A stretch of 64,000 nt of DNA from Escherichia coli (GTDB lineage: Bacteria > Pseudomonadota > Gammaproteobacteria > Enterobacterales > Enterobacteriaceae). The stretch lies in assembly GCF_002854065.1 (NCBI RefSeq), contig NZ_CP024150.1; one strand, given 5' to 3'. The first letter of the stretch is position 1, and each line of letters starts with the position of its first letter. Position numbers: made by a program. Below are positions 45,601 to 51,600 of this stretch, piece after piece.

Positions 45601-48600
45601 CGCTGACGGAATGCCCGGGCGTTTCCACCCAGCCGTTCTCCAGCTTCAGTGCCATGAATGGTGAATCGCTCACAGGCAGGGAGGCCGGTTCAGCCCGCCC
45701 CGGCACAACAACCGTCATCGCATCTTCACTGACGGATGCCACCTGCAGGCGGTCACCGCCGGAGACGCGGAGTCCGGGAATTTTCCCTGTCACCCTCAGT
45801 CGCTCGCCGTCTGCCACCGGCATTTTTTCCGGCCGGAACAGCGACCAGCTGCTGTCCAGGGAGGAAATACGCACCACCTGCGTTTCATCCTGCGCATCCC
45901 GCAGGGTCAGGCTGTTACTCTGCGCCGTCACCCGGTCGATAACATAGCGGTCATGACTGCGTGTCTCCGGGTTCCACTGCTCCATCACCATCCCCGGTCG
46001 GTACATATCCCGCAGATAACGGCTCCGGCTGTCCAGCCAGACCGGTGACAGGGCGGTCATGGTTACCTCCGGGTGTCCGAGCACGCCCTGTGTTTTCAGC
46101 TCACTGCGAATGGCCTGTGTCAGTATGGCCTGTTCCCGTACCCCGCTGACCTGTGCCACGCTCTCTTCTCCGGCTTTCACGCTGGCCGCAAAATCTCCGG
46201 CCAGCCGGTCATAGCGGACATTCCGGTCCGGTTCACTGATGATGGTTGCCGGTCGCTGTTCTCCGCCCTGCCAGCGATACGTGTTCACCCCGGCATCCTT
46301 CATGGCCATCAGCGCACTGCCTGTACCGGTTCGCTGCCCGCTGTCGGTTATCAGGACCTGTACGTTATGACGTGCGGCACCGTCCAGCAGGGTTAACGTC
46401 TCTTTCAGGGAGAGTTTTTCGCCCTGGTCAACGATAACGGTACTGCCCGGTGTGAAGGCCATACCCTCCAGCAGCTGACGACGTCCGGTTATCAGCTCAC
46501 CGGACAGCCGTTCATCCTGCTTCAGGTTCATCTGCGAACGACGGTCAGCAGCGATAATCTGCACCTCCCGCCCCTGCTCCCGGGCCATCATGACCAGCTC
46601 CGCCACCCGCTCACGCTGCCCGGCTGCACCGCCCTGCCCGGACACAATGGCCAGCGACGGGCGATCCTGTGCCAGAACACTGACGGCATCGCTGTAACCG
46701 GCCGTCCGGGGGACACTTTTCTCCGGATGTACGGTCACCCGGTTCTGTTTCATGATGTCACGACTGAGTGCCCGGACTGACAGCTCATCGAGCACATGAA
46801 TTCCTGATGTGAACAGCCCCTTCTCACGATCGAGGGGGATAAGCTGCTCACGGCTGATGGCCTCATCGATACCGGCGCGTGCCCGTTCAATCACACCATT
46901 TTCCGGCGGCAGTATGCCGACCGTCCTGGCCAGCACGTCCGTGTACGTGAACTGCACTTTTCGTTCACTTAATCCGGCAATCGCCTGTGTCACCGCCTGC
47001 TGCACATCCGGCCCGTCCTGTGAAGCTGGCCCGGGCGCCTGCGTGCGGGTCTCCGCCCGTTGATCCGCCGCGTCACGATACGCCCGGATGTCGAACCCGG
47101 TTTCCTTCAGCGTCTGCATCCATTCAGCCATTCTGACTTCCGGATCGACGTGCTGTTTGGATTTACGCGTATCCAGTGCCGCCACATCCCGGGATTTCAG
47201 CGAGGCCCCTTCCCCGACGGCCTCCCTGATAGCCTGTGAACGACTGGAAAAGGCCTCCACCGGTACGCCCGGCATCTCCCACATACCGTGCTTACCGACC
47301 ACTTCGGTTTCATAACCCAGCGCCTCAACGCGCTGACGTAACTCACTCTGATATATTTTCCCGAACGCAATCCGGTTCGCGAGCACGTTCTCGGAAAATC
47401 CGGTTTTCCCCACTTTGTCACTGCTCAGTGTCTTCCACTCGCCGTTATGCTGCGTGACATTAGCCACCACCACATGCGTGTGTAACTGTGGGTCCTGATC
47501 GCGACTGGTGTCATGGTTAAACAGTGCCATCACCAGATTACCGGTCAGCACCGTTTCTGACTGTCCGTCCGTCATCACCCGTGTGGAGGCCAGCGCCTCC
47601 ACCTGACGGACAGCAAAATCCACGGCCTGGTTATGTGCATCAATAAGACGTTTATCCCCCCCGAGCATGGCCATCATGGAGACACTTTTGGGGGCGGAGA
47701 AGGTCAGGTCGTAGCCGGGACGATGCTTATTACTGCCATCCTGCATGCGGCTTAAATCCGCCCCGTCCGGCAGCCTGCCCTCCAGAAGACGGGTAAAAAC
47801 ATCCTTATCGACGCTGCCCTGCAGCCCAAGCTGTTCAGCCCCCTGACCGGCCCAGCGTTCTCCCATGCTACCCAGCACATAGTAATTATCCTTGTCGGTG
47901 TAATAGTTTCCGGCACTGCCTGCCGATTTAACAACGCTGAAACTCAACATCAGAAATCATCTCCCGGCTCAACATCCTCCCCGCGCTCCCGGTGCACATT
48001 AATGTTCACCTCTTCACGACGCTGCATCTGCTGCTGGATGTCCGGATGATTTTCCTGTTGCCACGCCTCATAAGCGGCCATATCCACCACTTCACCGGAT
48101 TCACTGATCCCGGGTGGCAGTTGCTGTTCCATCTCTTCTTCCGGTTTCATGTTCAGCTCCTGCTCGCTCCCCCCTGCCGGAACACTCACACCTGCATCTG
48201 ACTTCTTATCATTGATGACAGAAGACACTGGCTGTTGTGGCTGTTGTGGCTGTTGTGGCTGTTGTGGCTGTTGTGGCTGTTGTGGCTGTTGTGGCTGTTG
48301 TGGCTGTTGTGGCTGTTGTGGCTGTTGTGGCTGTTGTGGCTGTTGTGGCTGTTGTGGCTGTTGTGGCTGTTGTGGCTGTTCAGCCTGAGTCACGCCTTCT
48401 CCGGAGGCAACCTCCGGTTCGAAGAGGCTGGCCATCTGGCGACCTTCTGCTTCCCTTGCAGCAAGTACGGCACTCAGACGGTTCTCCATTTCCGGGTTGA
48501 TGTCACGCGGAATAAACTCCGGAGCGACCTTCGGTCGTGCCTGATATTTCAGAGAGAGTTTGACTGCCGGATACGGTCCGGGCAGAGTGACATAGCAGGT

Positions 48601-51600
48601 CAGATCCGGCAGAGACTGAATGTCGGAATAACTGACCAGCGTCTGACGCTCCATATCCTTACCGGTCGATACCCCGTCACGTACCGGGTCAGCACCGTAG
48701 GAATACTGCTCGCTGGCTTTCAGGTGCTCTTTCTCACCAATTTCACCGGCAGCGAACTCTGCAATCTTATGGCTGGGAGAACGGAAAAAGGCACGGGTGT
48801 TCATGACGTCAAACAGCGTGGCCGCCGCTTTCTCACCGTAGATATCTTCCAGCTGGGCATAGGACTGGATACCAAACACATAACAGCCACCGAACTTACG
48901 GGCTTCCGGCAGGATCTCCACCAGGTCCGGCAGTTTGTGTAACGTGGGTAACTCGTCACAGAAAAACCACACACGACGGTTACGGTTTTCTCCCATTGCC
49001 AGCAGACCACGAATGGCAATGGACAGCCACATGGAGATCACCGGCTTCAGGGAGGCATGGGTGAACGGTCATAAATCACCACCATATCACCGCGCTGACG
49101 GGCGTAGTTGGCCAGACGACGGATATCCTCACAGGAGCATCGGGAGGGCGCCCCTGTGGCGCCCGTTCCCCGCTGCCTGTGGGCTGTTCACCGCGCCCGG
49201 TAACGGGTCAGGCCGACCGTGGAATACCGCAGCCGTCGTCTTTTTGACGGCAAGGCTATGCCGCGAAAGCGGCTTGAAGGGCGCTCATCAGAAAAGGGCG
49301 ACGGGCTGGCGTACACTGTCACCGACGCCAGCCGGGAGCGGTAAAAGCGCCCGTCCCGTGCCCGGCCGGACGCGGGACACTGACCACAGGCAGCGTTCCT
49401 GCCGCGCCGCGTCAGCCGGCGCAGTAAAAAGAGGAGCCCGGCGACATCTTTTGTTATCCGCCAAACAAAACCCAAAAACAACCCATACCAAGCCCAACAA
49501 AACACCAAAACAAGACAAATAATCATTGATTGATAGTTAAAATGGGGTAAACTTGACAAATAAACCCATTTAAAGCCCAAAACACACCCAAACAAACACC
49601 AAAAAAAACACCATAAGGAGTTTTATAAATGTTGGTATTCATTGATGACGGTTCAACAAACATCAAACTACAGTGGCAGGAAAGCGACGGAACAATTAAA
49701 CAGCACATTAGCCCGAACAGCTTCAAACGCGAGTGGGCAGTTTCTTTTGGTGATAAAAAGGTCTTTAACTACACACTGAACGGCGAACAGTATTCATTTG
49801 ATCCAATCAGCCCGGATGCTGTAGTCACAACCAATATCGCATGGCAATACAGCGACGTTAATGTCGTTGCGGTGCACCACGCCTTACTGACCAGTGGTCT
49901 GCCGGTAAGCGAAGTGGATATTGTTTGCACACTTCCTCTGACAGAGTATTACGACAGGAATAACCAACCCAATACGGAAAATATTGAGCGTAAGAAAGCA
50001 AACTTCCGGAAAAAAATTACATTAAATGGTGGGGATACATTCACAATAAAAGATGTAAAAGTCATGCCTGAATCTATACCGGCAGGTTATGAAGTTCTAC
50101 AAGAACTGGATGAGTTAGATTCTTTATTAATTATAGATCTCGGGGGCACCACATTAGATATTTCTCAGGTAATGGGGAAATTATCGGGGATCAGTAAAAT
50201 ATACGGAGACTCATCTCTTGGTGTATCTCTGGTCACATCTGCAGTAAAAGATGCCCTTTCTCTTGCGAGAACAAAAGGAAGTAGCTATCTTGCTGATGAT
50301 ATAATTATTCACAGAAAAGATAATAACTATCTGAAGCAACGAATTAATGATGAGAACAAAATATCAATAGTCACCGAAGCAATGAATGAAGCACTTCGTA
50401 AACTTGAGCAACGTGTATTAAATACACTCAATGAATTTTCTGGTTATACTCATGTTATGGTTATAGGTGGTGGCGCAGAATTAATATGCGATGCAGTAAA
50501 AAAACACTCACAGATTCGTGATGAACGTTTTTTTAAAACCAATAACTCTCAATATGATTTAGTTAACGGTATGTATCTCATAGGTAATTAATGATGGACA
50601 AGCGCAGAACCATTGCCTTTAAGCTAAATCCAGATGTAAATCAAACAGATAAAATTGTTTGTGATACACTGGACAGTATCCCGCAAGGGGAACGCAGCCG
50701 CCTTAACCGGGCTGCACTGACGGCAGGTCTGGCCTTATACAGACAAGATCCCAGGGCCCCTTTCCTTTTATGTGAACTGCTGACGAAAGAAACCACATTT
50801 TCAGATATCGTGAATATATTGAGATCGCTATTTCCAAAAGAGATGGCCGATTTAAATTCTTCAACAATCATTCAGTCCTCTTCACAATCGGAGCAAAAAA
50901 GTGATGAGGAGACAAAAAAGAATGCGATGAAGTTAATAAACTAATTAAATTATGATTGAGTTTCCTTTATCCACTATCAGGCTGGATAAAGGGAACTTAA
51001 TCAAGTTATTTTATTGCCAGTCATTACATAAAATAAACAGGGTCGTTATTATGAAATAATTTCACGGAACTTATGAAAAAGTGGCTCCAATAATCAAAAT
51101 TGGTGAGTTCGCAATGTCTGGCAATAACGTTTTTGATGGGTTATTTGCCAGTCCGGATCGCCAGAATACGCATACTGTCAGGGCTGGGAAACGATGCTCT
51201 CGGTTATTTACTGAAAAAAGGTGATATCACTGACGCAGAATACCGGGCGGCCCTGGAAATCGATCCCCGGCAGTCGATTTCTGTACACCTGCCGTATTCA
51301 CAGACCTACCTCTGATAAAAAGGGCCAGTAACGGCCCTTTTCTTTTTCATAATATTCTGATCAGTCTTGCCGGGTTTCCTGCATAAATGCCTTTGTTCTC
51401 AATCGGTTTTACTACAACTGCCCCCGCACCAATAACAGCTCCGCTGCATATATACGGAGACAGAATAATGGCTCCACTGCCAACAGTAACCGAATCCCCC
51501 AGGGTAATGCTGATCCAGTTATCCGGTGACGGATCTGGTGCTCCTGAACGAAACAGATCGTTGGCGAACGTCACGTTATGACCAATGAAGCAGTTCTCCC

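Follow-up and report, generated by a model that had tools for sequence, protein, structure and literature searches.

We conclude that a microhomology-mediated deletion of about 47 kb in an F-like ancestor very probably gave rise to the traD-partition junction in the window (the whole 64-kb stretch of Escherichia coli contig NZ_CP024150.1 analysed here), leaving a dead traD beside intact traI, traX, finO, and parMRC genes and no capacity for F self-transfer. What the locus shows is a deletion scar of an ordinary and already known kind on a virulence plasmid of E. coli; the traD pseudogene is already in the RefSeq annotation, and the GC-rich element that now adjoins it is recently characterised backbone.

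The traD pseudogene occupies window positions 47950-49125 on the minus strand and shares 96-99.8% DNA identity with intact IncF traD (99-99.8% when many IncF traD genes are compared with the remnant by megablast). Our comparator was the intact traD of pH1519-76 (NC_025177.1 31308-33542, 744 aa, WP_032072830.1). By blastn, window 49063-47950 corresponds to nt 1167-2235 of this gene, and a second collinear piece, window 49130-49062, to nt 598-666 (98.6% identity over 69 nt); matches with E = 0 rule out chance. The original prediction of a 5′ truncation is borne out by alignment to intact IncF traD: traD-specific sequence ends at 49123-49125 (traD nt ~603), so that traD nt 1-~602 (codons 1-~200) are gone, and with them both the TraD_N domain, which Pfam finds at aa 32-128 of the comparator but not in the remnant, and Walker A (GTVGAGKS), which spans comparator aa 192-199 whereas the remnant begins at ~aa 201. 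Unlike F-like TraD, the remnant also lacks aa 223-389. The frame-breaking internal deletion, expected near 49050-49060, was found at 49062/49063, where 502 bp (traD nt 667-1168) are absent at a 2-bp TG microhomology; as 502 mod 3 = 1, the frame breaks at this inner junction, translation running ...VVIYDRS and then PMPP before a stop, and stops thus interrupt the nucleotide-binding domain. The longest remaining ORF (363 aa, from a GTG at 49041) covers just positions 223-387 of the 387 in the Pfam TrwB_AAD_bind profile.

What survives is the distal part of an F-like TraD. In common with TraD of F, R1, R100, and pH1519-76, the remnant has a Walker B motif (DELP), the TraM-recognition and QQP regions, and an acidic tail at its C-terminus, which is as long as that of the comparator; Pfam matches TraG-D_C in the remnant at E = 9e-20. 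The stop codon overlaps the traI ATG (TGATG), as in intact F-like operons. RefSeq annotates the equivalent of window 47950-49062 on a sister record as a pseudogene "missing N-terminus". Judged by its sequence, the traD remnant is a pseudogene that would yield no working coupling protein. The tract of QQP repeats (unit CAACAGCCA; TGGCTGTTG as read on the plus strand) is long and variable, as had been suspected: there are 16 copies in the window vs 11 in pH1519-76, and among the top 30 traD matches the matched spans step by 9 bp over the equivalent of 8 to 21 units. Length heterogeneity in this tract is already published (PMC3245843), and (QQP)16 falls inside the known polymorphic range.

Table 1. 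Features of the retained transfer-region block, the two deletion junctions, and the adjoining partition locus (window coordinates).
Feature	Position	Strand	Description and basis
finO, intact	40332..40892	-	186/186 aa identical to pH1519-76 FinO; no stops; sister RefSeq annotation agrees
traX, intact, 248 aa	41914..42660	-	245/248 aa identical to pH1519-76; no stops; annotated
traI, MOBF relaxase/helicase, intact, 1756 aa	42680..47950	-	1731/1756 identical to pH1519-76; no stops
traD 3′ fragment	47950..49063	-	traD nt ~1167-2235, aa ~390-744; blastn, tblastn, Pfam
(QQP)16 tract	48229..48380	-	16.9 perfect 9-bp copies; Tandem Repeats Finder
Inner deletion junction	49062..49063	.	three-way alignment and frame translations
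traD island, 62 bp	49064..49125	-	traD nt ~603-666, aa ~201-222; between both junctions
Outer deletion junction	49124..49125	.	aligned to both parental contexts in pH1519-76
GC-rich structured element	49126..49454	-	main predicted stem ~49171-49395
parC centromere/promoter region	49455..49628	+	two clusters of ~11-bp A/C-rich iterons
parM, intact	49629..50591	+	320/320 identical to pH1519-76; no stops; Pfam StbA_N, ParM_N
parR (stbB), intact	50594..50944	+	Pfam Plasmid_stab_B, E = 5e-30; annotated

A comparison of the outer junction with its two parental contexts reveals conservation of the backbone on either side. Specifically, i) pH1519-76 32474-42695 corresponds to window 49063-38797 at ~98% identity, and pH1519-76 58985-60820 to window 50959-49124 (1836 bp, 98.3% identity), both flanks lying in the orientation predicted from one intramolecular deletion in a pH1519-76-type backbone; ii) traD nt ~603 now meets sequence 7 nt upstream of the start codon of the lost DUF1281 (in L006 the DUF1281 coding sequence ends at 3994 and the match begins at 4001), at a TA dinucleotide common to both parents and lying within an imperfect TA-N-CCTC microhomology; iii) neither the sequence nor the annotation reveals an IS at either traD junction; and iv) the window and NZ_AP027791.1, although not identical, share the junction, which is therefore real and heritable, and neither the rest of PLSDB nor the other 5425 complete E. 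coli genomes contain it. Other tra-deleted IncF virulence and resistance plasmids have likewise lost part of tra while keeping replication, partition, and the distal traI-finO backbone, and about one fifth of the best 5000 records with the parM-upstream region are typed as not conjugative; in contrast to those plasmids, the window has microhomology rather than IS-mediated joins, and this pair of junctions is confined to the window lineage.

We propose that the ancestor would have been an F-like (IncFII/FIA) plasmid whose backbone ran in the usual sequence: parR<-parM<-parC, GC-rich hairpin, DUF1281, leading region, oriT, traM...traG, traD, traI, traX, finO. An IS-independent, illegitimate, microhomology-mediated deletion of about 47 kb, extending from just beyond the hairpin to traD nt ~603, would have taken the leading region, oriT, and traM-traG, and the further 502-bp microhomology deletion would have been either a separate event or part of a single complex template-switching event. 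The outcome would be a traD without membrane anchor, Walker A, or continuous frame; a plasmid without oriT, relaxosome accessory genes, or F pilus and mating-pair genes; and a traI, traX, and finO left intact next to an untouched parMRC. That a single event, whether template switching or microhomology-mediated break-induced replication, produced both junctions and left the 62-bp island as its footprint is conceivable but on balance unlikely: the two lie merely 62 bp apart, both have very short microhomologies (TG and TA(-N-CCTC)) with no IS at either, and no record with one junction alone was seen in searches that could not cleanly separate that case, but nothing sets one event apart from two sequential deletions, and small internal deletions are common in genes that are already dead. 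We consider it improbable that the outer junction reflects recombination between two plasmids (a mosaic or cointegrate) instead of intramolecular deletion in one F-like ancestor. The plasmid is indeed heavily mosaic, with IncFII and IncFIA replicons, many IS elements, an IncI-like MOBP module that brings its own psiA/ardA leading-region remnant, and a recombination patch within traI; yet a single backbone matches both flanks at ~98% identity, their order and orientation being exactly as expected from one deletion, and the junction has neither an IS nor long homology, only 2-6 bp.

Deletion from a single F-like ancestor accords with the transfer functions that remain. The window shows 64 kb of its own replicon, and the absence of tra genes elsewhere was judged on the complete sister record NZ_AP027791.1 (p2017.06.05CC_1), from which the window differs only by a missing ISApl1, the traI patch, and 3 other differences. 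A blastn search with a whole intact F-like plasmid found oriT and traM-traG nowhere else on the sister record; a short-word search with the oriT-traM region of pH1519-76 returned only chance words of 13-14 nt from the window and the sister; and a tblastn search with 22 F Tra proteins found the TraD C-terminus as the sole match in both. The full RefSeq annotation of the sister record contains no mating-pair-formation genes of any type, and its one transfer module is a MOBP relaxase (nikA/nikB-like). The original prediction thus holds on three counts: blastn and tblastn detect no further F tra gene in the window, no complete tra operon was found elsewhere on the replicon as represented by the sister, and the plasmid is probably not self-transmissible unless mobilised. 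Without an oriT in cis, without pilus and mating-pair genes (traA, L, E, K, B, V, C, W, U, N, F, H, G, etc.), and with a dead traD, the plasmid cannot use the F pathway for its own transfer; TraI would be left with no cis oriT as substrate, and any horizontal movement would need both a helper plasmid and the separate MOBP module that the sister carries. Counting against a non-conjugative reading, PLSDB (MOB-suite) labels the sister record "conjugative, MPF_I", which we think is an overcall due to a type IVb pilus operon.

The genes on either side of the scar are well preserved, and all the features match the positions first proposed to within a few bases. traI and traX, predicted to be intact, proved to be so (Table 1), the traI ORF comprising the TrwC relaxase, TraI_2B, AAA_30, and TraI_C domains (Pfam) expected of a MOBF relaxase and helicase; finO forms the distal end of the kept block. 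Across the right-hand 24.8 kb of the window, the differences from NZ_AP027791.1 number 39, and all of them cluster in a 1.46-kb recombination patch in traI (44454-45916). Against the reading as a relic, traI has stayed perfectly intact and has even exchanged this patch with another traI allele, neither of which a relic in pure decay would have to show. On the other side, ParM, ParR, and an upstream parC with iteron arrays at 49461-49510 and 49579-49613 (Tandem Repeats Finder) make up a type II partition system with no material difference from the R1/R100 parMRC (parA/stb) locus. traD had been described as fused to the partition locus, and the two do adjoin, but not as a functional fusion: the deletion stops ~330 bp upstream of parC and leaves parC, parM, and parR unaltered.

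The segment between traD and parC had been called GC-rich and of unknown origin. GC-rich it is (0.635-0.66 over 49000-49499 vs 0.33-0.44 in parC/parM), but its origin can be traced: it usually neighbours parC, over 5000 IncF/IncI plasmids have it beside parM, and pH1519-76 contains a second copy (61796-62118, 95.7% identical). Across 323 nt it is also 95.4% identical to pESBL-EA11 54442-54762; that stretch takes up the intergenic space directly 5′ of the M.EcoGIX methylase gene and stops 20 nt short of the gene's start at 54782. In the IncI1 plasmid pESBL, the hairpin 5′ of M.EcoGIX was reported as a single-strand DNA promoter of "class 3", large in size, with a start mapped by 5′RACE and initiation on ssDNA in transconjugants (PMC12672017, NAR 2025). 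Like the pESBL element, window 49126-49454 is predicted to form a large, stable stem-loop as ssDNA (MFE -95.7 and -98.7 kcal/mol, z = -4.9 and -5.1 with DNA parameters). A consensus fold of 12 copies contains 108 pairs, of which 3 show changes in both partners; with at least 92% identity among the copies, covariation power is low. The element has no Rfam family, the 97-aa ORF annotated within it has no Pfam match, and Frpo/class 1 elements are unrelated to it in sequence. By homology, we regard it as all that is left of the F-type leading region and a homologue of the class 3 ssDNA-promoter hairpin. Unlike its pESBL counterpart, which precedes the methylase, the parC-proximal copy precedes a DUF1281 gene in intact IncF plasmids, and in the ancestral context the DUF1281 start would lie 7 nt past the junction; in the window this native downstream gene is deleted, along with the leading region and oriT, so the element abuts the traD pseudogene and no longer has a leading-region gene immediately 3′ of it on the strand passed to the recipient, and its promoter role is putative.

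Could the present arrangement nonetheless be functional, with the hairpin driving traD′-traI-traX-finO when single-stranded, or the 363-aa TraD fragment interfering with co-resident F-like plasmids? We think this highly improbable. The hairpin does keep its native orientation to the downstream genes, with traD′ in place of DUF1281; the MOBP module and the traD′-traI block lie on one strand in the sister record, and the strand sent from the MOBP oriT would, by inference, serve as the traI template; traI, traX, and finO are all intact; and the TraD fragment retains the TraG-D_C region, the C-terminus, and the TraM-binding tail. Nevertheless, a sigma-70-like hexamer scan of the element and region finds no -35/-10 pair that reaches a score of 8 out of 12, there is no convincing ribosome-binding site before the fragment's GTG or ATG, the fragment has no Walker A, TraI has no cis oriT, and the intactness of the downstream genes is explained equally well by a recent deletion, the window being the same as the sister outside the traI patch. 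It is just as doubtful that the hairpin has been other than passive, either in setting where the 47-kb deletion stopped or in driving a transient burst of expression. The outer junction and the first predicted stem are 17 nt apart, and if such strong secondary structure acted as a replication roadblock it would fix the endpoint of the deletion; if the hairpin fired upon entry of ssDNA via the MOBP oriT, a transient burst of TraI, TraX, and FinO would follow, and could provide a trans-acting relaxase or fertility inhibition against resident F-like plasmids.

We wish to stress that the importance of the locus is small beyond correct annotation. It counsels caution in the automated typing of plasmids as "conjugative", and the GC-rich "hypothetical protein" region, wrongly annotated as a small ORF in thousands of IncF/IncI plasmid records, gains a name and a literature reference. 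For the plasmid lineage carrying the ecxAB toxin, the lack of F-type conjugative spread and the reliance on mobilisation should be useful in epidemiological interpretation.

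Alignment of the window with the intact traD gene of the IncF plasmid pH1519-76 (NC_025177.1 31308-33542, 744 aa) reveals two collinear traD pieces on the minus strand. Base by base, 502 bp are gone at the inner junction, 49062/49063, which carries a TG microhomology, and the traD frame is therefore broken. The remnant (traD') lacks the TraD_N domain and Walker A (aa 192-199) but keeps Walker B, the TraM-recognition region, and the C-terminal tail, confirming the original prediction that traD had lost its N-terminal part and suffered a frame-breaking internal deletion; RefSeq labels the 3' piece a pseudogene "missing N-terminus". 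At the outer junction, 49124/49125, a TA common to both parents lies within an imperfect TA-N-CCTC match.

Among the 72,556 plasmids and 5,426 complete E. coli genomes searched, the junction pair occurs only in this lineage, and an assembly artefact is ruled out because two non-identical sequences carry it. Exact-sequence look-up among ~15 billion proteins returned no match for three start variants of the truncated TraD ORF, nor for an ORF spanning the junction on the plus strand. A short junction query against PLSDB had its halves joined across the 502 bp in intact traD, and did not separate plasmids with the same deletion from intact ones.

Features of the window, with positions in the near-identical plasmid record NZ_AP027791.1 where available
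Feature	Window	Strand	NZ_AP027791.1	Remark
Type IVb pilus operon	~14.7-27.2 kb		9338-21852	complete-looking
ISApl1 site	~39164/39165		107148-108217	1,070 bp, in NZ_AP027791.1 only
Divergent traI segment	44454-45916			1.46 kb
traD 3' piece	49063-47950	-		traD nt 1167-2235
QQP tract	48229-48380			16.9 perfect 9-bp units
traD upstream piece	49130-49062	-		traD nt 598-666
GC-rich element	49126-49454	-
97-aa "hypothetical protein" ORF	49188-49481	-		RefSeq; TTG start
Microcin B17 operon	~50.9-56.7 kb
IS2	~52677-53905		92406-93634
Cholera-enterotoxin B subunit gene	~61543-61920	-		as annotated
EcxA gene	61968-62825	-		285 aa, annotated "hypothetical protein"

The gene order in pH1519-76 is parR<-parM<-parC, hairpin (the GC-rich element), DUF1281, leading region, oriT, traM...traD, traI, traX, finO. 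The window matches pH1519-76 58985-60820 and 32474-42695 at ~98%, and the order and orientation of these two blocks are exactly those left by deleting 60821 to ~31909 through the record origin, a span of about 47.3 kb on pH1519-76. Neither junction has an IS element; the ends share just 2-6 bp of microhomology, and the join between traD' and the hairpin is best explained by illegitimate, microhomology-mediated deletion. The 62-bp traD island between the junctions could then reflect either a second small deletion or a single complex template-switching event; the two histories would yield the same sequence, and both are compatible with it. The par-side endpoint falls 17 nt beyond the hairpin's first predicted stem, and a 2026 preprint reports that ssp2, another single-stranded DNA (ssDNA) promoter of the F leading region, stalls DNA synthesis at its stem end; that the hairpin set the deletion endpoint here is speculation.

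The GC-rich segment had been thought to be of unknown origin, which proved wrong: at least 5000 PLSDB plasmids carry 49124-49640 uninterrupted, at 95-100% identity, and the segment is a backbone element homologous to a class 3 hairpin. Six ssDNA promoters of pESBL have been mapped by RNA-seq of fresh transconjugants and 5'RACE (PMC12672017, NAR 2025); the only one assigned to "class 3" is a large hairpin upstream of M.EcoGIX, which the paper reports as conserved in F and as having no sequence relationship to Frpo/class 1. IncI1 plasmids also carry the element, and in pESBL-EA11 it fills the intergenic interval 54442-54762 directly 5' of the methylase gene (54782-55465). In pH1519-76 it lies between parC and the DUF1281 gene, the first gene at the far end of the leading region, with its start codon 7 nt past the breakpoint; a second copy 1 kb away, 95.7% identical over 325 bp, immediately precedes the DNA methylase gene of the leading region. 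The published class 3 description covers only the copy 5' of M.EcoGIX (PMC12672017). We conclude from sequence comparison that the GC-rich element is a class 3 ssDNA-promoter homologue stranded beside traD'-traI, and that the window's copy is a putative ssDNA promoter by homology.

In pH1519-76 (L008) the hairpin copies (20464-20820 and 21796-22118) flank the DUF1281 gene, and pNDM-SDCRK18-7 (L037) has a copy at 1501-1834. In some IncF plasmids only one copy is present, located between the methylase gene and parM, which suggests that DUF1281 can be lost by recombination between two hairpin copies.

Consistent with the class 3 description, the element as ssDNA is predicted to form a long imperfect hairpin (z about -5 on either strand), and 108 pairs persist in the consensus fold of 12 copies, three of them changed on both sides, although covariation power is low because no distant relatives emerged from a 17-mer scan of 100,044 species-representative genomes. 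Of the 26 loci in that scan only 7 were true homologues; these came from Escherichia or from contigs that are likely contaminants, and none fell below 92% identity. The element belongs to no described RNA family: an Rfam scan of 47000-52000 at a permissive E-value gave only sub-threshold noise (15.5 bits for Erse, whose gathering score is 138). Homology to Frpo (class 1) was rejected: comparison with the three Frpo-like copies in pH1519-76 gave no significant similarity. No promoter or terminator was predicted on the minus strand across 47800-49700, and our own -35/-10 hexamer scan of the element found no pair matching at least 8 of 12 on either strand. We treat the 97-aa ORF as spurious, given its TTG start, Arg-rich composition, lack of a Pfam match, and an N-terminus that varies between copies; the annotation is probably a systematic error in which a structured non-coding element was taken for a gene. 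The same region is annotated in thousands of plasmid records.

The neighbors of the scar are intact. TraI (1756 aa), TraX, FinO, and ParM all have their full length, and they share 98.6-100% identity with the pH1519-76 proteins, in keeping with the view that traI and traX are intact. The deletion left parC, parM, and parR untouched; traD is therefore not "fused to" the partition locus, as had been proposed, but adjacent to it, ~330 bp upstream. The QQP tract, rightly described as long and possibly variable in length, has 16 QQP units versus 11 in pH1519-76, and among the best 30 PLSDB matches the spans of this region step by 9 bp, equal to ~8-21 units. Published work already describes variation in the length of this motif among F-like TraD proteins (PMC3245843); the tract is therefore polymorphic but unremarkable, and the gene that holds it is dead.

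In reverse complement, the window is a very close relative of NZ_AP027791.1, the 109,780-bp IncFIA/IncFII plasmid p2017.06.05CC_1 of E. coli 2017.06.05CC from human faeces in Viet Nam. The two differ at 3 positions over 1-37602 and are 100% identical across traD' and its junctions. ISApl1, which splits an hha-like gene in NZ_AP027791.1, is an insertion polymorphism that distinguishes two plasmids nearly identical elsewhere. Over the right-hand 24.8 kb, all 39 differences fall within one traI segment (~2.7% divergence) and the remainder is identical. Homologous recombination with some other F-like plasmid has therefore replaced this segment in one of the two; many conjugative IncF plasmids carry a traI that matches the version in the window at 99.9%.

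No oriT is detectable in the window or the complete NZ_AP027791.1 (blastn and a short-word oriT search), nor is any F tra gene other than traD', traI, and traX (blastn, and tblastn with 22 Tra proteins). RefSeq's full annotation of NZ_AP027791.1 lists no mating-pair genes. The same record carries a second relic transfer module, MOBP, at 71774-77842, outside the window and on the same strand as traD'-traI, encoding a nikA-like mobA, a 906-aa MOBP relaxase, a 489-aa T4CP-like "TraM recognition domain" protein, and a 428-aa hypothetical protein. On its gene content, then, the plasmid is most plausibly non-self-transmissible and possibly mobilisable. The original prediction had likewise seen no other tra genes in the window, judged the plasmid probably non-conjugative unless mobilised, and proposed looking for oriT and traM-traG elsewhere on the replicon; none of these turned up on NZ_AP027791.1. 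PLSDB/MOB-suite labels NZ_AP027791.1 "conjugative, MPF_I", a label probably triggered by the type IVb pilus genes that it carries. That operon encodes a major pilin, a TcpQ-like protein, a secretin, PilO2, two ATPases, a platform protein, a prepilin peptidase, and a lytic transglycosylase. Before the MOBP module lies a second, IncI-like leading-region remnant (psiB', psiA, ardA) with an Frpo-like repeat at ~66853-67081.

The window carries other cargo. The 285-aa protein can be identified as EcxA, which forms the metalloprotease A subunit of the AB5 toxin EcxAB (PDB 4L63, E = 3e-176); its gene adjoins the B-subunit gene, and this is therefore an ecxAB toxin plasmid. NZ_AP027791.1 has an additional B-subunit copy with an internal stop. 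The microcin B17 operon comprises an mcbA-like TOMM precursor, a YcaO-like protein, mcbE/F, and a pentapeptide-repeat immunity protein, and is interrupted by IS2 between the precursor and YcaO genes.

The original interpretation was essentially right. The feature itself is ordinary, a scar left by a deletion in a well-known operon and specific to this lineage, and RefSeq had already marked it as a pseudogene. The junction pair serves as a handy lineage marker, nothing more, and the only modestly interesting by-product is that the GC-rich DNA can be named as a class 3 ssDNA-promoter homologue.
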